From Bacteroidota bacterium (GTDB lineage: Bacteria; Bacteroidota; Bacteroidia; UKL13-3): a stretch of 64,000 nucleotides of DNA. How positions within the stretch are numbered: position 1 is the stretch's first letter; the number at the start of each line of letters is the position of its first letter. This document shows, piece after piece, positions 1,526-60,051 of the stretch. The position numbers were made by a program, and so were the translations under genes. The stretch covers positions 106,229 to 170,228 of the forward strand of contig JAAFJM010000005.1 in NCBI GenBank assembly GCA_013298895.1, written 5' to 3'. Below the pieces are notes generated by a model that was given only the letters and a program-made list of their open reading frames with translations, ran no database searches and had not been told where the DNA came from.

Positions 1526-1527
1526 GT

Positions 1528-5019: not shown

Positions 5020-5021
5020 AG

Positions 5022-6998: not shown

Positions 6999-7013
6999 TA
7001 GTTTTTTATGATT

Positions 7014-7385: not shown

Positions 7386-7514
7386 ACTGCACTCATCCTA
7401 TAAAACTTTACAATAAAAAAATTTACTTTTAATTGGAGTAAACTAAACTTTATTATATTCGTTTAAAATTGTTGTTACCCTAAAAAGGCTTCACCAAATA
7501 GTTAGGATATAAAT

Positions 7515-41264: not shown

Positions 41265-44200
41265 ATGAAAAAAATGTTACTTCAGTGCCTTTTATTTCTT
41301 ACACCAGTCTTAGCATTTGCGCAAAAGGATAAAGTGTTAGTCATTAAATCTGGCAACGGATTTAAACTTACTGTAAATGGAAAAGAGACGTTCATCAATG
41401 GAATGAATTGGGATTATTTTCCAATTGGTACCAACTACAATTATAGTTTATGGAAGCAATCAGATGATGTGATTATTGCAGCATTAGATATTGAAATGCC
41501 CCTTCTTAAAAATATGGGCGTTAATGTTATTAGGCAATATACTGGCGTTCCAGCAAAATGGGTAAAATATATTTATGAAAATTATGGTATTTATACCATG
41601 CTTAATCATTCTTTTGGCCGCTATGGTTTAACTGTTAAGGGCAAATGGGAACCAAATACTGACTACGCTGATCCAAATGTGCGCGAAATTTTATTGAACG
41701 AAACCAAAGAGATGGTAAGGGAATACAAGGAAACACCTGGTGTTTTGCTTTTTTTGCTAGGTAATGAAAATAACTATGGTCTTTTTTGGAGAGGTGCAGA
41801 AACAGAGAACATACCATTTGCCGACAGAAAGTCAACAAAAGCGGCTTATGACATGTACAAACTCTTCAACGATGCTACAAAAGCATTAAAAGAATTAGAT
41901 AGCAATCACCCAATATCAATATGTAATGGAGACTTATTATTTTCAGATATCATTGCCAAAGAGTGCAAGGATGTTGATATTTTAGGAATTAATTGTTACC
42001 GCGGGTCTTCTTTTACTAATTTGTACGATAAAGTAAAAAAGGATTTAAATATGCCCATATTACTTACTGAATTTGGTTCAGATGCCTATAATACGCTGGC
42101 AAATAAAGAAGATCAAGAATATCAAGCCAAAGTGTTACTTAGCAATTGGAAAGAAATATACGAAAATGCTTCTGGAATGGGTAAAAATGACAATAGCTTG
42201 GGTGGATTCACATTTCAGTTTAGCGATGGCTGGTGGAAAACCGGTCAAACAATAAATTTAGATGAACACGATGCCACTGCTTCATGGTCGAATGGCGGTT
42301 ACAAAAATGATTTTGTTTTAGGTGAGAATAATATGAATGAAGAGTGGTTTGGAATATGTGCTAAAGGACAAACAAATGAGCGAGGAACATACGAACTTTA
42401 TCCAAGAGCAGCCTATTATGCTCTGCAAAGTGTTCATCAGTTTAATCCTTACACTGCAAATCCTGAATCTATAAATATTTTGTTTAAAGGAATTTCTGTG
42501 GCAGATGCTACTTTAAGGGCAAGGGGAGATAAAGCGGTGTTGGAGTCTAAAGATAAAGGCAAATTGTATTTAAGTAATTTACAGGCCAATTTTAACACTT
42601 ACCAAACTGGCGGAAGTTTAATTTCAACTCCTACAACTGCTAACCCAGCAAGCACAACATTTCCAAATGAACAAGGCTTCGACCACATGGAATCATTTAA
42701 TATTGGAGTGACAGCAAGACCTGCTCCTAACATGAGGGCAAATGTTCAATTTAATGTGTTAGGTAATGTTGCTACCAGACCAATTGATGAAATATTTTAT
42801 GAAAACAGGGGACGTAATTTAACGGTTCAAACACCAAATGGACCTCAACAGATTAATTCAAACAATAGGTTGCAATTATATAGAGCAAGTTATACTTGGG
42901 ATGCTCAAGAATTTAAGGTAACAGGTTTTTACAGAACCGGCCACTACCATTGGGGGTATGAGGGCGATTTTTTTGGACTTTATCGTGAGGCTAATTACGG
43001 GCCAAATATTGATATTTATAATGGCAATGCTCCTTTTGGTTTTGAAGTGGAAGCAAAGAAAATGTTAAAAGGCTTGAAAATTGCATTTGGCCCTGAATTA
43101 TGGTGGGGTGCAAACCCCGCTTTTCTAGCAAAATATAGTAGAAAATTAATCGGTTTAGATGTAACTGGTATATTCCATGAAGATCTCGTACAAAGGAGTG
43201 ATTTACAAAGTTCATTTGCTGTACCTGTTCCAAAAACGAGAAGATTGACATTAGCGATTGGTAAAAAAACAGAAAAATTCACATTTGATGTGGGTGGAAT
43301 TTGGGGAGGTCAGCCTCTTGTTGGAAGAGGTTTCCAAATGATCCAAGACAATATTGTGTATGTTGATAAAATAAAAAGTACAGATAATTTTGGAGGAAAA
43401 GTAAAACTTACTTATTCAATAGGATCGATACGATGGTATGGTCTTGCGTCTTATATGGGGCTAGTTGCTAACGGTGGTGTAGATCAAACTAAAACTTTTA
43501 CAGGATGGGTACTTAAGGATATTGGAAGTGGAAATATGTACAATGTACTTTCAGGGTTTACCTACAACATTGGTAAATTTCAAATTGCTCCTAATTTCTT
43601 GTATCAAAAACCTTTAGTAGGACCAATTGGGCCACAATTTGCTGCACCAGCCAGGCCAAGAAATATATTAGATGATCCTTTTTCAGTAAGAGGAAACAGA
43701 GAAACTTTGGGTGGAGAGCTTTTACTAACCTTTGACCCTACTCCAGCTACTTGGATGTATGAATGGGACAATGATAGAATGGAAGATGCACAGTTTGCCA
43801 TGAGTACAGGCTTTGTGTATCGCCATCTACCTACTATTCAAGATGCAGCTATTGGTATTCTTGGAAATGGACGTACTACTTTCGTGTTTCCTGGTTCAGC
43901 ACCAGCACAAGATTTGTGGGAAGCAAATACCAGAATGGTTTCCAAAATAAATCCTCAATTCGGTATTATAGGAAATATTTATTTTGGAAATGGACAAGCA
44001 AATGGAAGTGATACCAGAACTATAAATAGATATGGTATTGACATCAGAACCATTTACAAAAAAATGAAACTAATTACGATGGTTAAAATTGATGATTGGG
44101 GACCTTTTGATTACCACAGAGATTTTAACCAAACTTTCCCGCTTCAGTTGATAGGTGATTGGTCAGTAGAAATAGGGAAACCGGACTGGTTTATGTTGCC

Positions 44201-44378
44201 TGGAACAAAACTTGGATTTAGAGGAACCTACCGCACACTAAATAGATACTCCAATAGATATTCACCAACTACGAAAATGAATAACTTAGGTGAAATTGTT
44301 CCAGACCCAAATGCTATTGGATTCCCTGATGGAAATGAGTGGGAATTTAGAACCTATATCCAAATAAACATTAACTAA
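41265..44378 (+). CDS. Secreted clan GH-A glycoside hydrolase domain (GH5-like) fused to a ~600-aa putative outer-membrane beta-barrel
   Basis: Signal peptide (MKKMLLQCLLFLTPVLAFAQ). The N-terminal ~400 aa carry the LFLLGNENNY acid/base and ILLTEFG nucleophile Glu motifs of TIM-barrel clan GH-A hydrolases. The C-terminal ~600 aa are Gly/Tyr/Asn/Trp-rich with alternating hydrophobic residues, typical of OM beta-barrels. The ORF track starts 10 codons earlier at 41235. Confidence 0.55.
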   Translation: MKKMLLQCLLFLTPVLAFAQKDKVLVIKSGNGFKLTVNGKETFINGMNWDYFPIGTNYNYSLWKQSDDVIIAALDIEMPLLKNMGVNVIRQYTGVPAKWVKYIYENYGIYTMLNHSFGRYGLTVKGKWEPNTDYADPNVREILLNETKEMVREYKETPGVLLFLLGNENNYGLFWRGAETENIPFADRKSTKAAYDMYKLFNDATKALKELDSNHPISICNGDLLFSDIIAKECKDVDILGINCYRGSSFTNLYDKVKKDLNMPILLTEFGSDAYNTLANKEDQEYQAKVLLSNWKEIYENASGMGKNDNSLGGFTFQFSDGWWKTGQTINLDEHDATASWSNGGYKNDFVLGENNMNEEWFGICAKGQTNERGTYELYPRAAYYALQSVHQFNPYTANPESINILFKGISVADATLRARGDKAVLESKDKGKLYLSNLQANFNTYQTGGSLISTPTTANPASTTFPNEQGFDHMESFNIGVTARPAPNMRANVQFNVLGNVATRPIDEIFYENRGRNLTVQTPNGPQQINSNNRLQLYRASYTWDAQEFKVTGFYRTGHYHWGYEGDFFGLYREANYGPNIDIYNGNAPFGFEVEAKKMLKGLKIAFGPELWWGANPAFLAKYSRKLIGLDVTGIFHEDLVQRSDLQSSFAVPVPKTRRLTLAIGKKTEKFTFDVGGIWGGQPLVGRGFQMIQDNIVYVDKIKSTDNFGGKVKLTYSIGSIRWYGLASYMGLVANGGVDQTKTFTGWVLKDIGSGNMYNVLSGFTYNIGKFQIAPNFLYQKPLVGPIGPQFAAPARPRNILDDPFSVRGNRETLGGELLLTFDPTPATWMYEWDNDRMEDAQFAMSTGFVYRHLPTIQDAAIGILGNGRTTFVFPGSAPAQDLWEANTRMVSKINPQFGIIGNIYFGNGQANGSDTRTINRYGIDIRTIYKKMKLITMVKIDDWGPFDYHRDFNQTFPLQLIGDWSVEIGKPDWFMLPGTKLGFRGTYRTLNRYSNRYSPTTKMNNLGEIVPDPNAIGFPDGNEWEFRTYIQININ

Positions 44379-45853: not shown

Positions 45854-46666
45854 ATGAAGTATATAAATAAAATAATGATAGTGGCTATGCTATTTGTAAT
45901 GCTAGCAGGTTGTGAAGTAGAACCAAAACAAACCCTACCAAATAGAAGCTTCGAGTTGGTTTGGAGTGACGAGTTTGAAGGTGATTCGGGCGTTGCCCCC
46001 AATGCAACTAAATGGACATACGATTTAGGTACTGGTCAAAATGGTTGGGGGAATAACGAACTTCAATCCTATACGAATAAAGCACAAAATGTATCTTTAG
46101 ATGGAAAAGGAAATCTGTTGATAACAGCAATAAAAAATGGTTCCAATTATACCTCTGCACGTATCAAAACGAAAGGAATATTTTCTCAGAAATATGGCAA
46201 ATTTGAGGCACGTATTAAAACACCAACAGGAGCTGGCATGTGGCCTGCGTTTTGGATGTTGGGTGATAATATTGATAGTGTAAGTTGGCCAAAATGTGGT
46301 GAGATTGATATCATGGAACAAAAAGGAAAGTTTTCGAATATTACTTACGGTACTATTCATGGGCCTGGTTACTTTGGTGGCGAAGCTATAAGCTCCCCTT
46401 ATTCAATACCCAATAGCCGATTCGATAATGATTTTTTCATTTACGCTGTAGAATGGAATGAAAGCCAGATTGATTTTTTTGTGAATGGTTATCTTTATAG
46501 AAGAATCACACCTGCTGAAACGAAAGGACAGTGGGTATTCAAACAATCATTTTTTATGATCCTTAATTTAGCAGTAGGTGGAAACTTTGGAGGACCTCCA
46601 AATGAGAATACACCATTTCCAGGAACTATGGCTGTGGATTATGTCAGAGTTTATAAGTATAAATAA
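45854..46666 (+). CDS. GH16 endo-beta-1,3-glucanase (laminarinase) lipoprotein
   Basis: Lipobox (MLAGCEV). ELVWSDEFEG and the GH16 catalytic motif EIDIME (ExDxxE). ARIKTKG, WPAFWMLG. Confidence 0.85.
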   Translation: MKYINKIMIVAMLFVMLAGCEVEPKQTLPNRSFELVWSDEFEGDSGVAPNATKWTYDLGTGQNGWGNNELQSYTNKAQNVSLDGKGNLLITAIKNGSNYTSARIKTKGIFSQKYGKFEARIKTPTGAGMWPAFWMLGDNIDSVSWPKCGEIDIMEQKGKFSNITYGTIHGPGYFGGEAISSPYSIPNSRFDNDFFIYAVEWNESQIDFFVNGYLYRRITPAETKGQWVFKQSFFMILNLAVGGNFGGPPNENTPFPGTMAVDYVRVYKYK

Positions 46667-46780: not shown

Positions 46781-49700
46781 ATGACAGGTCAAAATCAAGA
46801 AAAACAAGAGTCTTTAGTAGCAATAAAGCGATTGAAAATTGAAGGTGAAAACTTCTTTTGCATTTCAAACAATAATGAAATGCGTCCATTTTTTATGAGT
46901 ATAGTAAGCGATTCTCATCATTGGATGTTTATATCCAGTAATGGAGGGATTACTGCTGGACGTAAGAGTGCTGAGTACGCATTATTTCCTTATTACACTG
47001 TTGATAAAATTACTGAATCATACGACATTACTGGTTCTAAGTCAATATTTCAAGTAATTCAAAATGACGAAATCCATGTATGGGAACCATTTTCTGAACG
47101 AAATGAAAGCGAATTTCACACTGCTAGAAACCTATATAAAAATGCTATTGGTAATAAAATCATTTTTGAAGAAATAAATCATACGCTTGGGCTTACATTT
47201 AGATATGAATGGAACTCTAGCAATATGTATGGGTTTGTACGTAAATCTACTATAGAAAATATAGGAGATAAAGAACTTAAAATTAATTTGCTAGATGGCA
47301 TACAAAATATAATGCCAGATGGTGTAAGTAGTGATTTACAAAACGCTGCTAGTAATCTTGTTGATGCGTACAAGAGAAATGAATTAGATGCGGGTTCAGG
47401 GATGGGGATATTTGCCCTAAGTGCAATTATAGTAGATAAAGCTGAACCTAGCGAAGCACTTAAAGCCAACGTTGCTTGGTCTCTTGGACTTGATAATCCA
47501 AAATATTTAGTGTCTTCTTTGCAACTTAATGCTTTTAGAAAGGGATTAGGCATAGTTCAAGAAGAAGATGTGAAGGCAGAAAAAGGATCTTATTTCATTA
47601 ATAAAGAAATTACATTATCACCTGGGAATAAAAAAAATTGGTTAATTATAGCTGATGTAAACCAAAGCCAGGCCGATGTTGTTAGATTAATTAATGAGAT
47701 TAAAACCAATAAAGAAATTAGAAAACTGGTAGAAGACGACATAGAACTTGGCTCTCAACGATTAATTGAACTTAATGCATCATCTGATGGCATCCAATTG
47801 TCGGATGATGTTTACAGGGATACACGACATTTTTCCAATACCCTTTTCAATATAATGCGAGGCGGCATTTTCGATTTCAATTACCAAATCGAAAAGTGGG
47901 ATTTAGTTAAACACTTCATTACGGCTAACAAAACGGTTTATGAAAAGCACCATAAGTTGTTTGATGGCTTGGCTGAAACTTTCACAGTTTTTGAATTAGA
48001 AAAATTATCATCTGAAACTGACGACAACCATTTTAAGAGACTATGTGCAGAATACATGCCTTTAAAATTCAGCAGAAGGCATGGTGATCCAAGTAGGCCT
48101 TGGAATAAATTTTCAATCAACACCCGAAGCGCGGTTGACCACTCAAAGGTATTGGATTACGAAGGCAACTGGCGAGATATTTTTCAAAACTGGGAAGCAC
48201 TAGCAATCTCTTACCCTGCCTTTACCAAGAGTATGGTTCACAAGTTTTTAAATGCAACTACTTTTGAAGGATATAATCCTTATAGGTTAACTAAAAGTGG
48301 TTTTGATTGGGAAACAGTAGAGCATGATAATCCTTGGTCGTATATTGGTTATTGGGGAGATCATCAGATTATATATTTGTTAAAATTATTGGAAATTAAT
48401 GAGAAGTATTTTCCTGGTCAATTAAGTAGCCAATTTAATCAAGACCTTTTTGTATATGCCAATGTTCCTTACAAAATAAAGAGTTATAATGAAATTGTGA
48501 ACAACGCTAAAGATACCATAGAGTTTGAGGAGGCGTTGGATGCAAAAATCAGAAAAAAGCGTGACTTAATAGGTTCTGACGCTACACTTTTAGAAGATCA
48601 AAAAGGAAAAATTTATTCCGTAAATTTTATAGAGAAAATATTAGCAACTGTTTTGTCTAAACTCTCCAATTTTATTCCTGGTGGTGGAATTTGGATGAAT
48701 ACCCAAAGGCCGGAATGGAATGATGCAAACAATGCACTTGTAGGGAATGGTGTTTCCGTTGTAACCCTCTGCTACCTGCGAAGGTTCCTTGTGTTTTTTG
48801 ATAAGCTTATTGAGCAAACAGCGGATGAAGATCGCGTTGAAGTATCGAATGAGTTAATCATCTTCTTTAAAAAATTACATACAACTTTTGATGAACATGC
48901 AGCATTGTTAAAAAATGACATCAATGATGCTCAACGCAAAGAAATACTTGATAGTTTAGGTCAAGCAGGAAGTGATTACAGAGAACATATTTACAAACAA
49001 TCATTTTGGGGAGAGAAAAGAACAATTTCATACCGTAGGCTTAAAGCATTTGCTAAAGTAAGTTTACAGTTTATAGAACATACAATCAACGCCAATAAAC
49101 GTGATGATGAGATGTATCATTCCTACAATTTGATGAGCATTCGAGACAATAATGAAATTTCTATTTCTTACCTCAATGAAATGCTCGAAGGACAAGTTGC
49201 TGTGCTGAGTTCGGGTTACCTATCTCCAAAGGATGCCTTAAAACTATTGGATAGTATGAAGAAGAGTGCGCTTTTCCGTCCTGATCAGTACAGCTATTTG
49301 CTTTACCCAAATAAAATACTTCCTAAGTTTTTAGAGAAGAACAATATCCCAAAAGAAGCCATAAAACAATCAAAGCTTATCAATGCAATGTTAGCTGATG
49401 GCGATAAATCGCTTGTAGAGCAAGACATAAAAGGAGATTACCATTTTAACGGTAACTTTAAAAATGCTGCCGATTTAAGTGATGCCATTTCAAAATTGGA
49501 GAATTCAAAGTATGGTCAGTTCATTCAAAGTGAAAAGAAAGCTCTTTTAGATACTTTTGAATTAGTTTTTGACCATAAATCATTTACTGGCCGTTCTGGT
49601 ACATTTTATGGCTACGAAGGTCTAGGCTCTATTTACTGGCACATGGTTTCTAAACTGCAATTGGCTGTGCAAGAAGTATGTTTGCAAGCAATAGAAAAAG

Positions 49701-50236
49701 AAGAAAGTGCCGAGGTAATTGGAAAATTATTGGAGCATTATTACGAAATAAATGCAGGCGTTGGTGTGCACAAATCGCCATCACTTTACGGTGCATTTCC
49801 TACCGATCCATACTCTCACACTCCGGCTAACAGAGGAGCGCAACAACCAGGCATGACAGGCCAGGTAAAAGAAGACATTCTTAGTAGATTTGGCGAATTG
49901 GGTGTTTTTGTTTCCAATGGTCGTTTGTATTTTAATCCATGTTTATTAAGAAAAAACGAGTTTACAACAGAAGACCGTTTGTTTAATTACGTTACCATAA
50001 ATAAGGAACATAAAACTTTTGCACCTGCCCTTGGCTCACTTTGTTTTACTATTTGCCAAGTTCCAGTCATTTACTGTTTATCAAATGAAAATCGTCTTGA
50101 AATTGAAAAGAAAGATGGTAATTTAAGTAAACATGATACCCTGTACCTTGATGCAGAAACAAGCACACAAATCTTTAATAGAACAGGTAAAGTAGCTAAA
50201 ATTACTGTATATGTCAAAGAATCAATATTGAAGTAA
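46781..50236 (+). CDS. Large cytoplasmic protein; candidate beta-1,3-glucan phosphorylase (GH149/GH161/GH94-clan-like)
   Basis: 1151 aa, no signal peptide. Embedded among GH16/GH17/GH30 genes. Size and context match the GH149-type phosphorylases described in flavobacterial laminarin loci. I cannot confirm catalytic motifs by eye. Confidence 0.4.
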   Translation: MTGQNQEKQESLVAIKRLKIEGENFFCISNNNEMRPFFMSIVSDSHHWMFISSNGGITAGRKSAEYALFPYYTVDKITESYDITGSKSIFQVIQNDEIHVWEPFSERNESEFHTARNLYKNAIGNKIIFEEINHTLGLTFRYEWNSSNMYGFVRKSTIENIGDKELKINLLDGIQNIMPDGVSSDLQNAASNLVDAYKRNELDAGSGMGIFALSAIIVDKAEPSEALKANVAWSLGLDNPKYLVSSLQLNAFRKGLGIVQEEDVKAEKGSYFINKEITLSPGNKKNWLIIADVNQSQADVVRLINEIKTNKEIRKLVEDDIELGSQRLIELNASSDGIQLSDDVYRDTRHFSNTLFNIMRGGIFDFNYQIEKWDLVKHFITANKTVYEKHHKLFDGLAETFTVFELEKLSSETDDNHFKRLCAEYMPLKFSRRHGDPSRPWNKFSINTRSAVDHSKVLDYEGNWRDIFQNWEALAISYPAFTKSMVHKFLNATTFEGYNPYRLTKSGFDWETVEHDNPWSYIGYWGDHQIIYLLKLLEINEKYFPGQLSSQFNQDLFVYANVPYKIKSYNEIVNNAKDTIEFEEALDAKIRKKRDLIGSDATLLEDQKGKIYSVNFIEKILATVLSKLSNFIPGGGIWMNTQRPEWNDANNALVGNGVSVVTLCYLRRFLVFFDKLIEQTADEDRVEVSNELIIFFKKLHTTFDEHAALLKNDINDAQRKEILDSLGQAGSDYREHIYKQSFWGEKRTISYRRLKAFAKVSLQFIEHTINANKRDDEMYHSYNLMSIRDNNEISISYLNEMLEGQVAVLSSGYLSPKDALKLLDSMKKSALFRPDQYSYLLYPNKILPKFLEKNNIPKEAIKQSKLINAMLADGDKSLVEQDIKGDYHFNGNFKNAADLSDAISKLENSKYGQFIQSEKKALLDTFELVFDHKSFTGRSGTFYGYEGLGSIYWHMVSKLQLAVQEVCLQAIEKEESAEVIGKLLEHYYEINAGVGVHKSPSLYGAFPTDPYSHTPANRGAQQPGMTGQVKEDILSRFGELGVFVSNGRLYFNPCLLRKNEFTTEDRLFNYVTINKEHKTFAPALGSLCFTICQVPVIYCLSNENRLEIEKKDGNLSKHDTLYLDAETSTQIFNRTGKVAKITVYVKESILK

Positions 50237-50238: not shown

Positions 50239-51522
50239 ATGCGAAAAGTTAGTATAACATATTATTTTTTAGTGCTTTTAACTGTTATGCTAACTTCGTG
50301 TGGCTCTCAAAACGCTACCAAAGAAAACTCAAAACAATTGGAGAAAACAAAAACGGCCGCTCAAATTTTAGGTGATTCTAACTACCAAGCAATATGCTAT
50401 GGAGGTTATCGCACAAATACGCGAGATTCACAGCCCTCTGTTTCTCAAATTAAAGAAGACGTGAAAATACTAAGTGCAATGGGCATAAAATTGCTCCGCA
50501 CTTATAATACAAAGTATGACGAGGTAAGAAGTTTGATGCAGGCAATAACTGAGTTGCGCTCAGAGAACCCAGATTTTGAAATGTATGTAATGCTTGGTGC
50601 TTGGATAGATTGCGAAAATGCTTGGACAGAGAAGACACCTAATCATAACAAAGAAAACATAAAAGCGAATACCGAGGAGATTGAAAGAGCTGTTGACCTA
50701 GCAAACAAATATCCTGAAATTATAAAAATAATTGCTGTGGGTAATGAAGCCATGGTAAAATGGGCAGCCAGCTATTATGTAGAACCACATATTATTTTAA
50801 AATGGATTACTTACTTACAAAACTTAAAAAAAGAAAATAGTTTACCTCAAGATTTATGGATTACCTCTTCCGATAACTTCGCTTCTTGGGGTGGTGGCGA
50901 CTCCTCTTACCATGTCAGTGATTTAAAGAAAATATATGAAGCAGTAGATTATGTTTCTATTCATACATATCCAATGCACGACACCCATTACAATCCTGTT
51001 TTTTGGGGATTAACTGCGCAGGAAGAAGCTTTAACGCCAGAAGAAAAAATAGACACTTTGATGTTGCGTTCCTTAAATTATGCAAAAAAGCAATACCTTG
51101 GCGTATCTAATTATATGAAATCTATTGGAATAGATAAACCCATTCATATTGGAGAAACTGGTTGGGCTTCAAGCTCTGATGGTTTGTATGGAAATAATGG
51201 TTCCAAAGCATGTGATGAATATAAATCTGGAAAATATTATAAATTGATGCGTGAATGGACCAATCAAGAAAAAATTACTTGTTTTTATTTTGAGGCCTTT
51301 GACGAGCAATGGAAAGATGCCAACAACCTAAAAGGTTCAGAAAATCATTTTGGATTATTTACCATTGAGGGTAAAGCCAAATATGCACTATGGGAAAAAG
51401 TAGATCAAGGTGTATTTAAGCACTTAAAAAGAGATGGCAATTCAATTGAAAAAACTTACAATGGTAAAGAAGAAGATTTGCTAAAGATGGTTGAATTACC
51501 TAAAATTAAAAATATTAAATAA
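50239..51522 (+). CDS. GH17-family beta-1,3-glucanase/transglycosylase lipoprotein
   Basis: Lipobox (MLTSCGS). IAVGNEAM is the acid/base region and IHIGETGWASS the nucleophile region (GH17 signature x-E-[ST]-G-W-[PA]-S). Confidence 0.7.
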   Translation: MRKVSITYYFLVLLTVMLTSCGSQNATKENSKQLEKTKTAAQILGDSNYQAICYGGYRTNTRDSQPSVSQIKEDVKILSAMGIKLLRTYNTKYDEVRSLMQAITELRSENPDFEMYVMLGAWIDCENAWTEKTPNHNKENIKANTEEIERAVDLANKYPEIIKIIAVGNEAMVKWAASYYVEPHIILKWITYLQNLKKENSLPQDLWITSSDNFASWGGGDSSYHVSDLKKIYEAVDYVSIHTYPMHDTHYNPVFWGLTAQEEALTPEEKIDTLMLRSLNYAKKQYLGVSNYMKSIGIDKPIHIGETGWASSSDGLYGNNGSKACDEYKSGKYYKLMREWTNQEKITCFYFEAFDEQWKDANNLKGSENHFGLFTIEGKAKYALWEKVDQGVFKHLKRDGNSIEKTYNGKEEDLLKMVELPKIKNIK

Positions 51523-53030
51523 TGAAGAACATGAAACAGCATTTATTTTCCGTAAAAACTTTTCTATTGGTGATGACTTGTGCTGTTTTTGTTCAATGTA
51601 ATAATATTAGAAAAATGACTATTGATGTATATGAAACCTCAGAAAACGGAAATTCACTTACGCTTATAAAAGATTTTAAACCCGCTGACGAATCTTTAAC
51701 ATTAAAGGTAAATCCAGCCGAGCAATTTCAAAAAATTACAGGATTTGGAGGGTCATTTACTGAGGCATCGGCCCATTTGTTAAATAAATTGAGCCTTGCC
51801 AACAGAAAAAAAATATTAGACGCTTATTTTAGTCAAGAAGGCGCAAATTATTCTCTAACCAGAACACATATTGCATCGTGCGACTTTTCGTTAAGCAACT
51901 ACACCTATGCCAAAGTTGAAAACGATTTGGAAATGAAACATTTTACAATTGAAGATGATAAAATGGATTTAATTCCGATGATTTTAGATGCCAAGAAAAC
52001 ATCAAAAGAAGGATTTAAAATTATAGCCTCTCCATGGACTTGCCCACCGTGGATGAAAGACAATAAAAAATTTGTTGGAGGGAAATTATTACCCGAGTTT
52101 AATGATGCTTTTGCTTTGTATTTTTCAAAATATTTATCGGCTTATAAAAAAGAAGGAATTGATATTTGGGGCGTAACAGTAATTAATGAGCCACATGGCA
52201 ACGGAAATAACTGGGAAAGCACCTTGTTTTCACCAAAAGAAATGACTGATTTTGTTCAAAACCATCTTGGGCCAAAATTAGAAAAAGACAATTGGGGTAA
52301 AGTAAACATTTTTGGTTACGACCAAAACCGAGCTGGCTTAAAGGAATGGGTTGATGAAATGTACAAAGATGAAAAATCATCAAAGTATTATGCTGGTGTT
52401 GCCATTCACTGGTACGAAAGCACGTATAATTATTTTCCAGATGCACTTCAATATGCGCACAAAAAAGCACCTAATAAATATTTAATAGAAACCGAAGGTT
52501 GTGTAGATTCAGAAGTTCCAAAGTGGCAGGATGATAAATGGTATTGGCAAAAAGAAGCCACCGATTGGGGTTGGGACTGGGCAAGCGAAAAGGACCGTCA
52601 TTTACACCCAAAATATGCACCTGTAAATAGGTATGCAACAGACATAATTGGCTGTTTGAATAATTATGTAGATGGTTGGGTAGATTGGAACATGGTTTTA
52701 AACAAACAAGGAGGGCCTAATTGGTTTAAAAATTGGTGTGTAGCTCCTGTAATTGTAGATGAAGAAAAGGACGAAGTGTATTTTACACCATTGTACTTTA
52801 TAATGGCACATTTTAGTAAATTTATGCGACCAGGAGCTGTTAAAATTGGCTGTGAAATAAATCACAAAGAAGTAATGACAACGGCTGTTCAAAACCCTGA
52901 TGGAAGCATTGTGATTGCATTATTTAACCCTACGGATAAAAAATACAATATTGCAATCAACATCAATAAGGAAATAAAAACAATTGCCATAGATTCAAAA
53001 GCATTACAAACAATAGTAATTAAAAATTAA
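51522..53030 (+). CDS. GH30-family beta-glucosidase/beta-1,6-glucanase
   Basis: Signal peptide. ITGFGGSFTEASA, VTVINEPHG (catalytic acid/base NEP) and the glucosylceramidase-like architecture. Confidence 0.75.
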   Translation: MKNMKQHLFSVKTFLLVMTCAVFVQCNNIRKMTIDVYETSENGNSLTLIKDFKPADESLTLKVNPAEQFQKITGFGGSFTEASAHLLNKLSLANRKKILDAYFSQEGANYSLTRTHIASCDFSLSNYTYAKVENDLEMKHFTIEDDKMDLIPMILDAKKTSKEGFKIIASPWTCPPWMKDNKKFVGGKLLPEFNDAFALYFSKYLSAYKKEGIDIWGVTVINEPHGNGNNWESTLFSPKEMTDFVQNHLGPKLEKDNWGKVNIFGYDQNRAGLKEWVDEMYKDEKSSKYYAGVAIHWYESTYNYFPDALQYAHKKAPNKYLIETEGCVDSEVPKWQDDKWYWQKEATDWGWDWASEKDRHLHPKYAPVNRYATDIIGCLNNYVDGWVDWNMVLNKQGGPNWFKNWCVAPVIVDEEKDEVYFTPLYFIMAHFSKFMRPGAVKIGCEINHKEVMTTAVQNPDGSIVIALFNPTDKKYNIAININKEIKTIAIDSKALQTIVIKN

Positions 53031-53041: not shown

Positions 53042-55396
53042 ATGTCCAATCAAATTTCATCACAAAAAGTGCCCATGGGGCAAAAAATCGCCTTCGGATT
53101 GGGAATGCTAGCCAACCAAATGTTCCCAGCTATGATTGGTATTTTTACCGTTGTATTGGTAGAAAAACTTGGATTTAGTGGATTGTTACTTGGATTAACC
53201 TATTTTATTCCTAAGTTTTATGATGCTTTATTTGATCTTATAATGGGATATGTAAGCGATAATACTAAATCTAAATGGGGTAGAAGAAGACAATATGTAT
53301 TGGCAGGTGCTATTATATTAGGGATTTCATTTTCATTAATGTGGCAATTGTATGCTGAAAATGGTGTTACTTACAATTTTTGGTACTTTTTAGTTGTGTC
53401 GCTAGTTTTTTATTCAGGGCTTACCATATTTAGTATTCCTTATGTAGCAATGGGATACGAAATGAGTGATGATTTTCATGAACGAACAAATATCATGGCT
53501 ACTTCCCAACTTATTGGTCAATTAGCTTGGGTTGTTGCTCCTTGGTTTTGGGTAATAATGGCTGATGAATCTTTGTTTCCATCAACCGATGTAGCAGTTA
53601 GAACTTTATCGGTGTATGTTGCAATTGGATGTAGCATTTTAGCAGCCATTCCAGCTTTCTTTATTCCAAGTAAATCAACATTGAACGAAAATTATAGCCC
53701 AATTGATTTTAAAGGAATACTTGGCAGTTTTGGAGAAATCAAAGAAGGATTAAAAGCTTCGGCAGAAATTAAACCATTCAGAAAAATTTGTATTGCAACC
53801 TTCTTAATTTTTAATGCTTTTCAAACCACAGCAGGTTTTTCTTATTTTATCATCAAATATTATTTGTTTAAGGGAAATGAAGACGGTTTTGGATTATGGC
53901 CAACATTATTTGGATGTGTGGGAGCTATGATTACTACAGTTATTGTAATACCTATTGTTGCTAGAATGTCTAAAATAATGGGAAAAAAGAAGGCATTTTT
54001 AGTTTCTCAAAGCATTTCAGTATTTGGTTATATTTTATTATGGATACTTTTTGTTCCGGGGAAACCTTATCTTTTTCTTTTTGCATTACCTTTTTTTGCA
54101 TTTGGTATTGGAAGTTTGTTTACCCTAATGATGTCTATGACTTCTGATGTAATAGATATTGACGAATTAAATACTGGAAAAAGAAGAGAAGGAAGTTTGG
54201 GGGCTATCTATTGGTGGATGGTAAAATTTGGAACTGCCGTAGCGGGATTATTAAGTGGTTTAATTCTAACTTTTGTTAGTTTTAAATCTAATGCACCTAC
54301 CCAAACAGATGAAACTATGTTTTGGTTAAGAATCTTCTTTGTTGGAATTCCAATATTAGGAACATTGGCTGCTATTTGGGCAATGAAAGATTATGATATT
54401 GATGAAGTAAAAGCATTAGAAGTAAGAGATCTTTTAGAAAAAAGGAAAAAACCTTCAGTAAATAAGCAATCATCCAGTTATCTTACTGGCAAATTACTTT
54501 CTTTATCCAATAATGGATCTTTAATCAATAAGTTGGTTGGAACAGATTTAAGTTCAAAAAGCGAAGAAGAAATAGAAACTCTATTTTCTAAGCAATTTAA
54601 TACTGGTTTAAATGGATTATGTTTTAGTCCTTATATTGAAGGGCAAAAAGTGGGCGATATTTTATCGGCCGAACAAATAAGAAGAAGATTAGAAATTATT
54701 GCACCGCATACAAAATGGATTAGAACTTTTTCATGCACAGAAGGAAATGAATTGATACCAGAAATTGCGCACCAAAAAAGCATTAAAACAGTTGTTGGAG
54801 CATGGATAAGCAATGATAGAGTGAGGAATGAAAAAGAAATAAATGAATTGATAAAACTTGCAAATGCTGGCTTGGTTGATATTGCAGCGGTAGGTAATGA
54901 AGTTTTGCATAGGGAAGAGATTTCAGAGGATGAATTAATTGAATACATTAAAAGAGTTAAAAACGCCATTCCAAATCATATTGAAGTAGGTTATGTTGAC
55001 GCCTATTATCAATTTATTGAAAGGCCTATACTTGTTGATGCTTGCGACTTGATTTTATGTAATTTCTATCCTTTCTGGGAAGGTGCTAACATTGATTATT
55101 CTGCATCTTATCTTTCAAATATGCTTGAGGTTACCAAAGCAGTAAGTAAGAATAAAAGAATAATTATTACAGAAACAGGATGGCCTAGTTTTGGAGAAAC
55201 AGTAGAAAATGCTGTACCATCAAAAATAAATGCGATGAAATATTTTGTTGTTTCGCAAGAATGGGCAAAAAGCAATAAAATAGAATTATTCCATTTTTCA
55301 TCATTCGATGAATCATGGAAAGTTATTCAAGAAGGTAAATTGGGAACATCTTGGGGATTATGGGATAAAAACGAAAAATTCAAGTTCAAAAAATAA
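53042..55396 (+). CDS. Fusion protein: N-terminal MFS/GPH-family sugar transporter (~460 aa) plus C-terminal GH17 domain (~300 aa)
   Basis: The N-terminal half has about 12 hydrophobic helices and a GPH-like DxxxGxRR region (DNTKSKWGRRRQ). The C-terminal half has AAVGNEVLH and IIITETGWPSFGE, a match to the GH17 signature, and is ~45% identical to the next gene. Confidence 0.7.
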   Translation: MSNQISSQKVPMGQKIAFGLGMLANQMFPAMIGIFTVVLVEKLGFSGLLLGLTYFIPKFYDALFDLIMGYVSDNTKSKWGRRRQYVLAGAIILGISFSLMWQLYAENGVTYNFWYFLVVSLVFYSGLTIFSIPYVAMGYEMSDDFHERTNIMATSQLIGQLAWVVAPWFWVIMADESLFPSTDVAVRTLSVYVAIGCSILAAIPAFFIPSKSTLNENYSPIDFKGILGSFGEIKEGLKASAEIKPFRKICIATFLIFNAFQTTAGFSYFIIKYYLFKGNEDGFGLWPTLFGCVGAMITTVIVIPIVARMSKIMGKKKAFLVSQSISVFGYILLWILFVPGKPYLFLFALPFFAFGIGSLFTLMMSMTSDVIDIDELNTGKRREGSLGAIYWWMVKFGTAVAGLLSGLILTFVSFKSNAPTQTDETMFWLRIFFVGIPILGTLAAIWAMKDYDIDEVKALEVRDLLEKRKKPSVNKQSSSYLTGKLLSLSNNGSLINKLVGTDLSSKSEEEIETLFSKQFNTGLNGLCFSPYIEGQKVGDILSAEQIRRRLEIIAPHTKWIRTFSCTEGNELIPEIAHQKSIKTVVGAWISNDRVRNEKEINELIKLANAGLVDIAAVGNEVLHREEISEDELIEYIKRVKNAIPNHIEVGYVDAYYQFIERPILVDACDLILCNFYPFWEGANIDYSASYLSNMLEVTKAVSKNKRIIITETGWPSFGETVENAVPSKINAMKYFVVSQEWAKSNKIELFHFSSFDESWKVIQEGKLGTSWGLWDKNEKFKFKK

Positions 55397-55407: not shown

Positions 55408-56355
55408 ATGTCATATAGAGAAGGTCATTTATTTAATCAAAAGAATCAGGAAAACTATTCTAATTCACACACTGAAAAACATGCTAATTCATATCACGAA
55501 ACTATTCATGTTAATTATTCTGAACTTTCAAATGATGATTTAAAAAGTTTATGGCATAAAACACTTCTGGGTGGAATGCATGGTATTTGTTTTAGTATTT
55601 ATGAAGATGGACAAAAGCCAGGAGCAATCATTACAGAAGCCCAAGTAGAAAGGCGCATAAAAATATTACAACCTTATGCCAAATGGGTGCGCTCGTTCTC
55701 TTGTATTGAAGGAAACGAACACGTGCCAAGAATGGCAAAAAAGTACGGAATGAAAACCCTTGTGGGGGCATGGCTTGGAGATGATTTAGAATTGAACGAA
55801 AGAGAAATTGAAGGCTTAATTGCGATGGCAAATGAAGGCTTGGTTGATGTGGCTGCTGTGGGTAATGAAGTGATGTATAGAAAAGATTTAACAGAAGAAC
55901 AATTATTAGCATATATACAAAGAGTAAAAGAAGCTATACCTCATATTCCAGTTGGTTATGTTGATGCCTATTACGAATTTTCTCACCGACCAAGAATTAC
56001 AGAAATTTGCGATGTGATTTTAACAAACTGTTACCCCTATTGGGAAGGATGTCCTATTGAATATTCCTTTGAACATATGAAAAGCATGTTTGAGTCCGCC
56101 AAAAATGCTAGTCAAGGTAAACGTGTAATTGTTACAGAAACTGGTTGGCCAAGCGAAGGTGGAGCATTTAAAGCATCAGTTGCTAGTAATGAAAATGCAA
56201 TGCGTTATTTTATTGATTGCCAGAATTGGTGTAATATAAATGGTATTGAGAGTTTTTATTTTGCTTCATTTGATGAATCTTGGAAAACTGGTCCAGAAGG
56301 CGATGTTGGAGCGTATTGGGGACTTTGGGATAAACATGAACAATTGAAATTTTAA
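55408..56355 (+). CDS. GH17-family protein without signal peptide (cytoplasmic paralogue)
   Basis: AAVGNEVMYR, VIVTETGWPSEGG. No N-terminal signal sequence. Paralogous to the C-terminal domain of the preceding fusion. Confidence 0.7.
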   Translation: MSYREGHLFNQKNQENYSNSHTEKHANSYHETIHVNYSELSNDDLKSLWHKTLLGGMHGICFSIYEDGQKPGAIITEAQVERRIKILQPYAKWVRSFSCIEGNEHVPRMAKKYGMKTLVGAWLGDDLELNEREIEGLIAMANEGLVDVAAVGNEVMYRKDLTEEQLLAYIQRVKEAIPHIPVGYVDAYYEFSHRPRITEICDVILTNCYPYWEGCPIEYSFEHMKSMFESAKNASQGKRVIVTETGWPSEGGAFKASVASNENAMRYFIDCQNWCNINGIESFYFASFDESWKTGPEGDVGAYWGLWDKHEQLKF

Positions 56356-57302
56356 TGGCGGATTTTTTTAATCAATTTAATTTACCATTTGCCAAAGCCA
56401 TGTGTTATTCTGGCTTTCGAAATGGACAACAACCAGGTGGAATTGTGCCATCTTACGAAGAAATAAAAGAAGATTTACTGCTTTTAGCACCTCATTGTAA
56501 TTACTTGCGATTGTATGATTGTGATGAGCACGCGTTAACCGTAATCAAGGTTATTCTCGAAGAAAAATTAGACTTCAAATTAATGCTTGGGGCGTACATC
56601 GTAGCCGAATTGAATAACCACGGCTGCCCATGGGGTGGTGGTATTTATGAGGAAAGGCAATTGGAAGAAAATAGGAAAATGAACGACCAAAAAATTCAAA
56701 GCCTAATCGATTGGTCTAATCAGTATACTGAAATTATTTGTTGTGTATCACTTGGCAATGAAGCTTGTGTTGATTGGACGGATCATTTTGTACCTGTTGA
56801 CCGTGTAATAGAGTTTGCAAAAAGAGTGAAGAAAAGTATTGAACAACCAATTACCTTCTGCGAGAATTATGTTCCCTGGTTAAATTATCTCGCACCACTT
56901 GTAGAGGTAATAGATTTCATTTCAATACACACCTATCCAGTTTGGGAATACAAACACATAAACGAATCTGTTGATTATACCATTGCTAATTATCAAATGG
57001 TAGCCAATCAATATCCTCAAATTCCTGTGGTAATTACGGAAGCGGGCTGGGCTACCAATTCGCATGGCAGAGGAATTCATGTTGAACATGTAAATGAAGA
57101 GAATCAGAAAATTTACTATGAAGACTTAATGGATTGGTCTATTAAAAACAATGTATTGACCTTCTTTTTCGAAGCATTTGACGAACAATGGAAAGGGTCA
57201 CCAGATCCATTGGAACCTGAAAAGCATTGGGGAGTGTTTAAAGCTGACAGGACGCCTAAATTGGTTTTTGCAGAATCCGCTAAAGTGTTAAAATCAACAT
57301 AA
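56355..57302 (+). CDS. Divergent GH17-like protein without signal peptide
   Basis: SLGNEACVDW, VVITEAGWATNSHG. The start overlaps the upstream stop (ATGA-type overlap at 56355). Confidence 0.6.
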   Translation: MADFFNQFNLPFAKAMCYSGFRNGQQPGGIVPSYEEIKEDLLLLAPHCNYLRLYDCDEHALTVIKVILEEKLDFKLMLGAYIVAELNNHGCPWGGGIYEERQLEENRKMNDQKIQSLIDWSNQYTEIICCVSLGNEACVDWTDHFVPVDRVIEFAKRVKKSIEQPITFCENYVPWLNYLAPLVEVIDFISIHTYPVWEYKHINESVDYTIANYQMVANQYPQIPVVITEAGWATNSHGRGIHVEHVNEENQKIYYEDLMDWSIKNNVLTFFFEAFDEQWKGSPDPLEPEKHWGVFKADRTPKLVFAESAKVLKST

Positions 57303-57380: not shown

Positions 57381-58106
57381 TTAAAGTTCAAAAGAAAAGC
57401 CCTTTTCTTCTAGTACCTTGTATCTTTTTTCATCAAATTGAAATAGTTTGGCAGGACGGTGAGCAACATTTTCTTTAAACTCATTCAAAGGTTGTAAAAT
57501 ATTCATTTCAAGAATTTTTTTCCTGAAATTAGATTTGTCAAACTTATATCCTAGTAGGGCTTCGTATAACAATTGTAATTCCAGTAGTGTAAATTTAGTT
57601 GGCAACAATTCAAATCCTGTAGGCTTATGTCGAACCTCATGTTTTAATGTTTCGATGCCTTTTTGAAGAATAGTATAATGATCAAAAGCCAATTCAGGCA
57701 ACTCATTTATACTAAACCATTCTGCAGATTTTGCCCAAGAAGAAGCAATGGGATTATAGCTCAAACTATTTACTACTGAAAAATAGCCTACCGTAACCAC
57801 TCGATCCAATGGATGTCTATCTATACTTCCAAAAGCGAAAAACTGCTTCATGTAAATGTTTTTTAATCCAGTGAGCTTTTCCAACACGTTATTAGCAGCA
57901 TCACATAAGTTTTGTTCAGGCTCTACAAGATCTCCAATTAAGGCCCAATGATCTTTAAATGGCTCCAAACTTCTTTGCACCAGCAATACCTTTATCTCAC
58001 CTTCTTGGTAACCAAAAATCACACAATCAACAGATAAACCAAAAATAAAGTACTCCCTGATTGGAATATTATAGTCGGATATATAGTAAGCATTTGTTGA
58101 TTTCAT
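57381..58106 (-). CDS. NrtR/AraR-like Nudix-domain transcriptional regulator
   Basis: Nudix-like fold (GLSVDCVIFGY...VLLVQR...WALIGDLVE, degenerate Nudix box) followed by a C-terminal winged-helix (FTLLELQLLYEALLG), as in Bacteroides AraR/NrtR. I take the start at MKSTNAYY (58106) rather than the upstream ATG, which would add a hydrophobic extension. Confidence 0.5.
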   Translation of the reverse strand: MKSTNAYYISDYNIPIREYFIFGLSVDCVIFGYQEGEIKVLLVQRSLEPFKDHWALIGDLVEPEQNLCDAANNVLEKLTGLKNIYMKQFFAFGSIDRHPLDRVVTVGYFSVVNSLSYNPIASSWAKSAEWFSINELPELAFDHYTILQKGIETLKHEVRHKPTGFELLPTKFTLLELQLLYEALLGYKFDKSNFRKKILEMNILQPLNEFKENVAHRPAKLFQFDEKRYKVLEEKGFSFEL

Positions 58107-58215
58107 GTTGCAAAATAACAGAAGAATTGTAAGTAAAATAAATTTACTTATAGTATTTTTTACTTTAACTTTTTTTGCTTTACTTGCGTTTACAAATATA
58201 TTAATATAATTACAT

Positions 58216-60051
58216 ATGAAAAAAATCATTACTTTAAGTTTATCCTTACTTGTTTCAAGCATAGGATTTTCTCAAAACGCCCCAATTAATTTTGAAACGG
58301 GTGGTCAAGGTGCGAGTTGGACTTGGACAACTTTTGAGAATGGCACGAATCCAACATTAGAAATTGTAAACAATCCTAGTTCAGTTGCTCCAAACACTTC
58401 TAGTAAAGTAGCAAAATTTACTGCACTAAAAGGAGGTAATCCGTGGGCTGGATGTGAGTCTGCGAAAGGTTCAGATATTGGTACGTTTTCTTTATCTGCA
58501 TCAAATGCCAGAGTGAAAATTTTGGTTTACAAAACTAGAATTAGCGATGTTGGAATCAAGTTCGTTAACAGCACCAATGGCTCTACAGGCGAAATCAAAG
58601 TTCCTAATACTAAAATCAACGAGTGGGAAGAGTTAACTTTTGACTTTTCTTCAAAAATTGGTGTCCCTGAATCAAATAATATTACTCAAATTGTAATATT
58701 CCCTGATTTCATTCCCGGTGGTGATCCTAGAGCTGATACTACTATTTCTTATTTCGACAATATTACATTTTCTGCCGGCACTACTTTAGCTGAACCAACT
58801 GCGCCTGCCATGGCTCCAACCAAACTAGCCGCTGATGTTATTTCATTGTTTAGCAACGCTTATACCAATGTAACAGTTGATACTTGGAGAACAGGTTGGT
58901 CTAACGGTACACTTACAGAAATGAAAATTGGCACTGATGATGTTAAAAAATACTCTGGATTGGATTTTGTTGGTATTGAAATGATTGCAAAACCAATTAA
59001 TATCAGTGCTATGGATTTGTTTGAATTTGACATTTGGACGCCAAATTCAACTAATTTTAGATTCAAATTAGTTGATGCTGGAGCCAATGGAACTATTGGA
59101 GGTGGGGATGATAAAGAGCACGAACTTACTGTTACTCCTACATTAGAAGGATGGAATCATATAGCGGTGCCAATATCGAATTTTACTGGCTTAACAACTA
59201 AGTCAAATATTGCACAACTTATTTTTGGAAGTGCGCCTGTAGGTACATCTATAGTTTATTTGGATAATATTATGTTTAGTAAAGCCCCTGTATTGGCTGA
59301 ACCAACTGTTGCAGCAAAAACTCCTACAAAATTAGCTAAAGACGTTATTTCTTTGTTTAGCAATGCTTACACCAATGTAACAGTTGATACATGGAGAACT
59401 TCTTGGTCTAATGGAACACTTACAGAAACGAAAATTGGAGCTGATGATGTTAAAAAATACACTGGATTAGATTTTGTTGGGATTGAAACGATTGCAAAAC
59501 AAATTGATTTAACTGGTATGGATTCATTTGAATTTGATATGTGGACGCCAAATTCTACTGCTTTTAGGTTCAAATTAGTTGATGCAGGCGCTGATGGTGT
59601 TATTGGTGGTGGTAATGATAAAGAACATGAAACAACCATTACACCGACTTTAAACGGTTGGAATCACGTAGCAGTGTCAATATCGAGCATGACAGGCCTT
59701 ACAACCAAAAAGAATATTGCACAACTTATTTTTGCAAGTGCGCCTGTAGGGACTTCAATTGTTTACATTGATAATGTTTTATTTAGCAAAAAAACTTCAG
59801 TAGGTGTTTCTTCTATTGCGCAAGAAACAATTGGTGTTTTCCCAAATCCTGCAAGCAATAATTTAAATATCACCACTAAAAATAATATTCAAGATATTGC
59901 CATTTACAATGCATTGGGTCAGGTTGTATTAACAACTTCACCAAATGCTAATACTGTAAATGTTGATATTACTAGTTTACCAAACGGTTTTTATACTGTT
60001 AAGGCTAGCATAAATGGTGTTGATACCTTCAAGAAAATTATAAAAGAATAA
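58216..60051 (+). CDS. T9SS type A cargo protein with three CBM-like beta-sandwich domains (two near-identical tandem copies)
   Basis: Signal peptide. The C-terminus VFPNPASNNLNITT...IYNALGQVV...GFYTVKA is Por_Secre_tail. Internal 169-aa repeats are ~85% identical. Confidence 0.75.
   Translation: MKKIITLSLSLLVSSIGFSQNAPINFETGGQGASWTWTTFENGTNPTLEIVNNPSSVAPNTSSKVAKFTALKGGNPWAGCESAKGSDIGTFSLSASNARVKILVYKTRISDVGIKFVNSTNGSTGEIKVPNTKINEWEELTFDFSSKIGVPESNNITQIVIFPDFIPGGDPRADTTISYFDNITFSAGTTLAEPTAPAMAPTKLAADVISLFSNAYTNVTVDTWRTGWSNGTLTEMKIGTDDVKKYSGLDFVGIEMIAKPINISAMDLFEFDIWTPNSTNFRFKLVDAGANGTIGGGDDKEHELTVTPTLEGWNHIAVPISNFTGLTTKSNIAQLIFGSAPVGTSIVYLDNIMFSKAPVLAEPTVAAKTPTKLAKDVISLFSNAYTNVTVDTWRTSWSNGTLTETKIGADDVKKYTGLDFVGIETIAKQIDLTGMDSFEFDMWTPNSTAFRFKLVDAGADGVIGGGNDKEHETTITPTLNGWNHVAVSISSMTGLTTKKNIAQLIFASAPVGTSIVYIDNVLFSKKTSVGVSSIAQETIGVFPNPASNNLNITTKNNIQDIAIYNALGQVVLTTSPNANTVNVDITSLPNGFYTVKASINGVDTFKKIIKE
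58789..59802 (+). repeat. Tandem 507-bp intragenic duplication (2 copies, ~85% nt identity)
   Basis: GCTGAACCAACTG... at 58789 recurs at 59296, and the sequences stay collinear for ~500 bp. Confidence 0.8.

Follow-up and report, generated by a model that had tools for sequence, protein, structure and literature searches.

How are oligosaccharides brought across the outer membrane by a Bacteroidota bacterium when no SusC/SusD pair accompanies its β-1,3-glucan operon? SusC/SusD pairs are the accepted hallmark of glycan uptake in Bacteroidota; they define polysaccharide utilisation loci (PULs) and are used to predict glycan use from metagenomes. The question is raised by a stretch of 64,000 nucleotides, hereafter the window, from a Bacteroidota bacterium (GenBank assembly GCA_013298895.1, contig JAAFJM010000005.1, positions 106,229 to 170,228), and more precisely by the gene found at the head of its glucan operon (Table 1). 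This gene encodes a signal peptide, a glycoside hydrolase (GH) domain of clan GH-A, a hinge and a putative outer-membrane β-barrel in one polypeptide, hereafter the fusion protein. The reading preferred here, to which a probability of about 55% is given, is that the fusion protein is the outer-membrane entry port of a SusC/D-less operon for β-1,3-glucan (laminarin or chrysolaminarin), with its enzyme on the periplasmic side.

The fusion gene is a real, strongly constrained gene. It is a single unbroken open reading frame (ORF) of 1047 codons (window positions 41235 to 44378, + strand), lying in DNA of about 30-37% GC. Residues are numbered throughout from the start codon used by most homologues (41265; 1037 amino acids, aa). 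Homologues form more than 5,340 clusters at 90% identity; the top 120 all have about 1040 aa and are 74-92% identical to the fusion protein. In a scan of one genome per species, the fusion was found to be encoded in at least 598 species, from which a set of 80 related loci was kept (full-length identity 61-92%). These are nearly all labelled as Bacteroidota (Flavobacterium, Algoriphagus, Cloacibacterium, Chitinophagaceae, Saprospiraceae, Cytophagales, Bacteroidales and others). Mean identity among orthologues is 71% for the GH domain, 67% for the barrel and 45% for the linker helix. Family members are named in their sources 'hypothetical', 'beta-galactosidase' or 'GH2 TIM barrel-domain protein'; none is called a porin.

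AlphaFold2 (AF2) models were obtained for the whole protein (predicted local distance difference test, pLDDT, 87.6; predicted template modelling score, pTM, 0.61) and for the barrel only, the latter from an alignment of 81 diverse sequences (pLDDT 90.6, pTM 0.85). A triosephosphate isomerase (TIM) barrel plus a β-barrel is modelled, and the C-terminal region does not take the form of a soluble β-sandwich or jelly-roll. About 24 long antiparallel strands are assigned to this region by DSSP, with turns of 2-3 residues regularly alternating with loops of 18-36 residues; all even-to-odd connectors but two have 2-6 residues, whereas the odd-to-even ones are long. The strands are amphipathic, and the Sec signal peptide and the turn/loop pattern are those of an outer-membrane barrel, which is the fold class given by the models; barrel closure, exact strand number and lumen are likewise as predicted by them. 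Distant homologues, whether fused or standalone, have Sec signal peptides and end in ...Y-x-F/Y/W/L/I. An earlier note on this DNA had proposed a GH-A hydrolase covalently fused to an outer-membrane-type barrel of more than 20 strands. This is borne out by the AF2 models and by structural matches, and every motif that it quoted (GNEN, TEFG and others) is present in the translation.

The barrel constitutes a previously unnamed family. Residues 434-1037 match no family of Pfam or NCBIfam, scans of distant members also gave no barrel family, and the barrel gave no PDB match by sequence or by profile; no solved structure is closely related to it. Neither a family-model match nor a specific structural similarity was found for the DUF5916 or Wzi type of barrel, which had been raised in the earlier note. 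The fusion protein does not match Plug, TonB_dep_Rec or CarboxypepD_reg, the domains of SusC-like or other TonB-dependent transporters, in which a plug with a TonB box sits inside 22 strands. As compared with type Va autotransporters, it has about 24 strands instead of 12 and no match to Pfam Autotransporter; a helix is present. Because these defining features are lacking, the protein is not assigned to the TonB-dependent transporters, the autotransporters, DUF5916 or Wzi. Conservation is not uniform along the barrel. It reaches 0.94 in the loop of residues 557-590 (HYHWGYEGDFFGLY...), versus 0.73 for the strands, and is higher still (0.99) in the short connector between strands 7 and 8. The strands are thus surpassed in conservation by several long loops rich in aromatic residues, which comprise, besides 557-590, residues 612-618 (0.99), 732-757 (0.89) and 946-956 (0.94). 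G567, D568, D583, P590 and G592 hardly vary, even when standalone barrels of proteobacteria are included. The loop 557-590 is a candidate element of the lumen or of the sugar path. More generally, the conserved aromatic-rich loops likely line the lumen, by analogy with the greasy slide and the L3 loop of sugar porins.

The enzyme domain has only a weak Pfam match, to the GH2 TIM barrel (E 7.6e-6). Its top sequence matches in the PDB are two solved GH158 endo-β-1,3-glucanases, with E values of 1.5e-3 and 0.017 from the single sequence and of 4.7e-10 and 7.3e-10 from a family profile. By structure, GH158(Pro), BuGH158 and GH157 rank first in Foldseek (E about 1e-14), and the neighbours are GH157, GH158 and GH72, three families described in the corresponding structures and papers as β-1,3-glucan enzymes. 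In the phmmer alignment, GNE168N lies opposite GNE-S of GH158(Pro) and TE269FG opposite TEFG. The catalytic glutamates of GH158(Pro) are numbered Glu143 (GNE) and Glu229 (TEFG) (PMC13195107); the GNE glutamate is matched to Glu143 through an inferred numbering offset of +8. Among aligned fused homologues, Glu168 is kept in 53 of 56 and Glu269 in 55 of 59. The fold is that of GH158, a (β/α)8 barrel with the acid/base glutamate after strand 4 (NE) and the nucleophile glutamate after strand 7.

BuGH158 (6pal), GH158(Pro) (9oro) and LaGH157 (9fz9/9g5g) share with the fusion enzyme the GH-A (β/α)8 fold and the catalytic motifs GNE and TEFG; its N-terminal β-hairpin resembles that of BuGH158, and all are encoded in β-1,3-glucan utilisation loci. 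In GH158, an eight-stranded Ig-like domain is packed C-terminally on the TIM barrel (PMC13195107). This domain is absent from the model of the fusion protein, where residue 395 is followed by two helices and by the membrane barrel. The place of the Ig-like domain is taken by a helical hinge plus 600 residues of membrane barrel, and the signal peptide is not of the lipoprotein type. Because the Ig-like domain is absent and identity to the GH157/GH158 structures is only 19-22% (phmmer E only 1.5e-3), the domain is called GH157/158-like rather than GH158: on sequence grounds, it is a distant or unclassified GH157/158-like member of clan GH-A and not a clear GH158. It is predicted to hydrolyse β-1,3-glucan, by analogy with its nearest structures and from the GH16, GH17, GH30 and GH149 genes of the operon.

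What, then, stands in the place of SusC/SusD? Neither was seen among the large ORFs scanned in the window. Within ±10 kb at the 80 loci, clustering and inspection, without a hidden Markov model scan of every ORF, revealed nothing SusC-like among ORFs of 700 aa or more. The locus of the window is thus not a PUL in the strict sense (adjacent susC/susD-like pair). Across the 80 loci, the gene order is fusion, lipoprotein, GH16, GH149, GH17, GH30, MFS-GH17 (MFS, major facilitator superfamily). A BguR-type regulator (propeller, Y_Y_Y, transmembrane and GerE parts) is encoded immediately 5′ of the fusion gene in 35 of them. In the canonical laminarin PUL of Formosa agariphila, BguR is immediately 5′ of the SusCD pair (bioRxiv 10.64898/2026.01.10.698779); the fusion gene therefore occupies the SusCD slot. 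No BguR-type gene was found in the window by tblastn, which suggests a local rearrangement or loss upstream of the operon. The likeness to SusC/SusD extends to the next genes, since the fusion gene comes first after the BguR-type regulator and is followed by genes for a surface lipoprotein and a GH16. The fusion protein differs from SusC/SusD in the lack of any plug, TonB-dependent-receptor or CarboxypepD_reg match and of a SusD homologue, and transport would be energy-independent. The claim that the fusion explains the missing SusC/D agrees with these data, the barrel being the only candidate for outer-membrane transport in this operon. 'CAZyme clusters lacking susCD-like pairs' (CAZyme, carbohydrate-active enzyme) have been noted around bacteroidetal GH149 genes, with the outer-membrane component not identified (PMC5827456).

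The barrel also exists on its own. An exhaustive HMMER search with residues 408-1037 gave 473 clusters at 50% identity. Most full-length matches repeat the GH-barrel architecture, at 25-50% identity; fused relatives include a Myxococcales protein (43% identical over its full length by tblastn) and gammaproteobacterial proteins, and a few members carry extra modules, such as an N-terminal carbohydrate-binding module (CBM), CBM4_9, in P0265. Standalone barrels of about 575-620 aa, with their own Sec signal peptides and a C-terminus of the classical outer-membrane type (...Y-x-F), are found in Gammaproteobacteria, including cultured Marinobacterium. One standalone barrel gene lies in a locus comprising glucokinase, barrel, SBP5-type ATP-binding cassette (ABC) importer and GH1; the Marinobacterium locus comprises an ABC importer, LacI, the standalone barrel and GH16. 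Because they lie beside ABC sugar importers, GH16 or GH1, standalone barrels mark the barrel as a probable uptake channel. Fused barrels occur in comparable surroundings. In Myxococcales, the locus encodes GH1, fused barrel, small lipoprotein, ABC importer, GH16, ROK and GH149. The metagenomic locus L087, retrieved via a gammaproteobacterial-type homologue, encodes a giant GH16/CBM protein, fused barrel, small lipoprotein, an unannotated GH149-sized ORF of 1143 aa, Entner-Doudoroff enzymes and GH30. Across the loci examined, the barrel recurs between phyla while the inner-membrane transporter varies with the phylum. The giant protein of L087 (positions 1-9985 of that locus) has more than 4,100 aa, includes several GH16 and CBM4_9 modules and is encoded immediately 5′ of the fused GH-barrel gene.

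A conserved lipoprotein is encoded directly 3′ of the barrel gene in gammaproteobacterial-type and Myxococcales loci (L081:4106-4636, L082:5971-7206, L084:13044-13664, L087:13003-13629), next to standalone and GH-fused barrels alike. It has about 200 aa, or forms the N-terminal part of a longer protein, and carries the motifs DP-NPFR, FYLWATA, GENQ[FY]Y and AYRSVLD. Three of the four proteins were scanned with Pfam and gave no match; no significant match was found between this lipoprotein and either the Big_2 lipoprotein of Bacteroidota or the GH domain. The association suggests that barrel and lipoprotein form an obligate pair, in the manner of LptD/LptE or SusC/SusD.

Does the enzyme face the periplasm or the cell surface? 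A closed barrel whose strands are all antiparallel has an even number of strands and both ends on one face, which in bacterial outer membranes is the periplasmic face, that of the short turns. In the models, the N and C termini of the barrel are on the turn side, and indels among 79 orthologues fall almost exclusively in the long odd-to-even connectors. Since the enzyme precedes a barrel that has an even number of strands and whose strand 1 starts from the periplasmic rim, the GH domain would be attached on the periplasmic side. The linker is the least conserved segment among orthologues (45% identity), although the region that spans it (residues 372-452) has a roughly conserved length of about 81 aa. 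Its pLDDT falls from 93 to 71 in the full model and from 74 to 62 in the C-terminal-only model. The low pLDDT of the hinge and the pTM of 0.61, versus 0.85 for the barrel alone, fit a flexible tether and not an element embedded in the lumen. The enzyme is therefore probably in the periplasm, at the exit of the pore.

The mechanism proposed for the entry port with a periplasmic enzyme is as follows. After Sec export, the 600 C-terminal residues would fold into the outer membrane and form a barrel of about 24 strands whose loops would line a passive, TonB-independent channel through which β-1,3-gluco-oligosaccharides diffuse. On the surface, the GH16 lipoprotein would fragment laminarin, while the Big_2 lipoprotein and a CBM-like protein secreted by the type IX secretion system (T9SS) would hold the polymer. 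The GH157/158-like domain, tethered to the periplasmic rim by the flexible hinge, would cleave the emerging chains. Such cleavage at the pore exit would keep the inward gradient steep and give pieces small enough for GH17, GH30 and MFS-GH17. Periplasmic GH17 and GH30 would trim and debranch the products, MFS-GH17 would take them across the inner membrane, and the GH149 phosphorylase and two cytoplasmic GH17 would complete the breakdown. The genomic pattern is that expected for the outer-membrane entry step of β-1,3-glucan oligosaccharide uptake, and the operon encodes two transporter-enzyme fusions, one per membrane.

Several points weigh against this reading. Fold classes, domain architecture, catalytic residues, conservation and gene contexts are shown by the data, whereas channel function and openness of the pore, substrate, TonB independence and periplasmic position of the enzyme are all inferred. 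Lacking a plug, a pore of 24 strands would leak if neither loops nor a partner lipoprotein occluded it. The protein of the window ends in EWEFRTYIQININ (...ININ), so its last strand is amphipathic but its final residue is an asparagine and not an aromatic one. No paper that describes either the fusion or its barrel came up in literature searches. A helix of 20 residues (412-431) is joined to strand 1 by a two-residue turn, which is also the classical look of an autotransporter linker. CBM4_9 is more usual on surface enzymes, and a CBM4_9-GH-barrel variant exists (P0265); characterised GH158 enzymes are surface lipoproteins.

The last three points speak for surface display, as assumed in the earlier note. 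To get there, the GH domain would use the lumen of its own barrel, like the passenger of an autotransporter, and helix 412-431 would span the pore; polymeric β-glucan would be cut outside and the products fed into the same barrel. The order of signal peptide, enzyme, α-helix and C-terminal barrel mirrors that of type Va autotransporters such as EstA, the region around the linker keeps roughly the same length, as noted above, and BuGH158, a structural relative, acts at the surface. However, a helix inside the lumen would block the channel, and the junction between this helix and strand 1 has reduced confidence in both models (71 and 62, below most of the barrel) and is modelled as a hinge rather than as a packed element. 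The barrel has about twenty-four strands and not twelve, lacks any Pfam autotransporter match and occurs in standalone forms. Standalone barrels work in uptake operons without a passenger domain; the ancestral role of the barrel would therefore be that of a channel and not of a translocator. Display would moreover require the export of a 45 kDa TIM barrel, whereas the protein lacks both signals usual for surface export in Bacteroidota, with no lipobox cysteine at the cleavage site of the signal peptide and no T9SS C-terminal domain; a surface GH16 lipoprotein is already encoded in the operon. Surface display like that of autotransporters is thus unlikely, although it is the best placed of the alternatives. 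From the reading of the earlier note, the GH-A/barrel fusion and the outer-membrane transport candidate replacing SusC/D are retained. Its cutting at the cell surface is not supported as it was worded, given the N-terminal enzyme, the canonical topology, the indels in long loops, the hinge at the junction and the lack of a lipoprotein or T9SS signal.

A more speculative form of import, which we regard as improbable, would have the wide 24-strand pore thread a chain of β-1,3-glucan directly into a processive periplasmic glucanase. Hydrolysis would then ratchet the polymer in without TonB, with the lipoprotein as a lid or plug; this would be a third kind of glycan import machine for Gram-negative bacteria, besides TonB-dependent SusCD and simple porins. 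Together, the fusion protein and MFS-GH17 would span the two membranes as a chain of transporters, each coupled to an enzyme. It is kept in mind because GH158(Pro) has been reported to be processive (PMC13195107).

Still less credit is given to a barrel that mainly serves as an anchor or scaffold for the enzyme, and perhaps for the lipoprotein, with oligosaccharides entering through an unlinked transporter such as a SusCD pair encoded elsewhere. The 64 kb of genome examined leave room for a β-glucan SusCD pair at another locus, and the conserved barrel-lipoprotein pairs recall assemblies of the LptD/LptE type, with the lipoprotein inside the barrel. However, a barrel of 600 residues with a mean identity of 67% across the phylum and near-invariant aromatic loops exceeds the needs of an anchor, standalone barrels next to ABC importers have nothing to anchor, and the recurring place directly after a BguR-type regulator is a transporter slot. 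Finally, a machine for β-glucan export or remodelling, combining a porin and a periplasmic hydrolase as in the secretion of alginate, Pel, poly-N-acetylglucosamine (PNAG) or cellulose, is rejected as very improbable: some GH17 members are transglycosylases (according to passages of PMC11005184), but the operon includes no glycosyltransferase or synthase, and all the partner genes are catabolic (GH16, GH30, GH149, MFS or ABC importer, glucokinase, Entner-Doudoroff enzymes, LacI, ROK or BguR regulators).

The entry-port reading can be set against known systems. Like LamB, ScrY, OprB, ChiP and CymA, the fusion barrel is predicted to be a passive channel encoded inside an oligosaccharide catabolic operon, and it shares with sugar channels conserved internal loops rich in aromatic residues. 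In the chitin system of Vibrio, chiP sits beside an ABC importer much as standalone barrels do with the SBP5-type importer. We infer that the fusion protein works like a substrate-specific porin of the LamB/ChiP/OprB class with a covalently attached periplasmic glycanase. The exopolysaccharide systems AlgE/AlgK/AlgL, PgaA/PgaB, BcsC/BcsZ and PelB/PelA export polymers and associate with synthases, a periplasmic tetratricopeptide repeat scaffold and a separate hydrolase, unlike the fusion protein, whose context is purely catabolic and whose hydrolase is covalently fused. A comparable design is found in the same operon: MFS-GH17, a fusion type already described in Formosa (PMC6246565), also joins covalently a transporter to a β-1,3-glucanase, but as a helical inner-membrane transporter with GH17 and not as an outer-membrane barrel with a GH157/158-like domain.

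Table 1. Features of the fusion gene and of its operon. Positions are those of the window; fractions refer to the 80 related loci.
Feature	Position	Strand	Evidence and remarks
Fusion gene: signal peptide, GH-A glucanase domain, hinge, outer-membrane β-barrel	41265..44378	+	1037 aa plus stop
Sec signal peptide (SPI-type), residues 1-20	41265..41324	+	MKKMLLQCLLFLTPVLAFA/QKD; modelled as low-confidence helix
(β/α)8 clan GH-A domain, residues 21-395, predicted retaining endo-β-1,3-glucanase	41325..42449	+	confident in AF2 model
Glu168 (GNE168N), predicted acid/base	41766..41768	+	pairs with GNE glutamate of GH158(Pro)
Glu269 (TE269FG), predicted nucleophile	42069..42071	+	pairs with TEFG glutamate of GH158(Pro)
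Linker, residues 396-433: helices 400-409 and 412-431 (charged), then hinge	42450..42563	+	DSSP, pLDDT
Outer-membrane β-barrel, residues 434-1037, about 24 antiparallel strands	42564..44375	+	strands joined by short turns and long loops in turn
Loop between strands 5 and 6, residues 557-590, RTGHYHWGYEGDFFGLY...APFG	42933..43034	+	longest near-invariant aromatic-rich barrel segment
Big_2 lipoprotein, 469 aa	44409..45818	+	lipobox FGC/KRD, Pfam Big_2; directly 3′ of fusion in 75/80
GH16 lipoprotein, laminarinase-type	45854..46666	+	Pfam GH16 E 1.1e-22, lipobox LAGC/EVE; 73/80
GH149 β-1,3-oligosaccharide phosphorylase, cytoplasmic	46781..50236	+	1625 bits to Pro_7066 (PDB 6hq6), without signal peptide; 57/80
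GH17 lipoprotein (427 aa) and GH30 (502 aa)	50239..53030	+	Pfam, N-terminal signals
MFS transporter fused to C-terminal GH17, inner-membrane importer	53042..55396	+	Pfam MFS_2 plus GH17
Two cytoplasmic GH17 proteins	55408..57302	+	Pfam, without signal peptides
NUDIX / NrtR-AraR winged-helix regulator	57381..58262	-	Pfam; homologue near fusion gene in 7/80
T9SS-secreted protein (Por_Secre_tail)	58216-60051		weak CBM11 and lyase-N-like matches
A slash within a sequence motif indicates the cleavage site.

The fusion gene heads a tightly packed array of co-directional genes, separated by gaps of -1 to 114 bp. The Big_2 lipoprotein likely binds glucan at the surface as a partner of the barrel. Given the match of the GH149 phosphorylase, the organism of the window is probably a near relative of the source of the crystallised metagenomic enzyme Pro_7066. 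The NUDIX / NrtR-AraR protein is a possible local regulator. The predicted start of the T9SS-secreted protein overlaps this divergent gene by 47 bp, and its true start may be further 3′. About half of the related loci encode a homologue of the T9SS-secreted protein, placed between the genes for Big_2 lipoprotein and GH16; the protein probably binds β-glucan, either secreted or attached to the surface. Just past the β-glucan operon, a GH97 gene of the α-glucosidase type with a signal peptide (60810-62924) is probably part of a separate α-glucan system. On the 5′ side, the operon is preceded by 1.2 kb of AT-rich DNA without any credible gene (40024-41234), which includes an α/β-hydrolase-like fragment (40462-40668, - strand), and then by a HipA-like kinase gene (HipA_2) overlapping a DUF3037 gene (38871-40023); this pair looks like a two-gene toxin-antitoxin or defence-like module. 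Further away, a Schlafen group 3-like helicase fused to an S24 (LexA-like) peptidase domain (2195-4408, - strand) has an unusual architecture and may be related to defence or SOS.

The barrel family and the enzyme-pore architecture are new, while the category of outer-membrane sugar channels is known. The family is large, unannotated and highly conserved; it is found in Bacteroidota, in fused and standalone forms in Gammaproteobacteria, and in fused form in Myxococcota. It is a concrete candidate for the absent outer-membrane step of SusCD-less CAZyme clusters (PMC5827456), for a class of substrates that is one of the most abundant glycans on Earth. If true, the proposed role would add a TonB-independent route of oligosaccharide import, provide annotation pipelines with a new marker gene, and establish a new family of barrel folds as well as, probably, a new family or subfamily within GH-A. 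It would also be a natural case of an enzyme covalently coupled to a pore. The finding bears on the definition of PULs.

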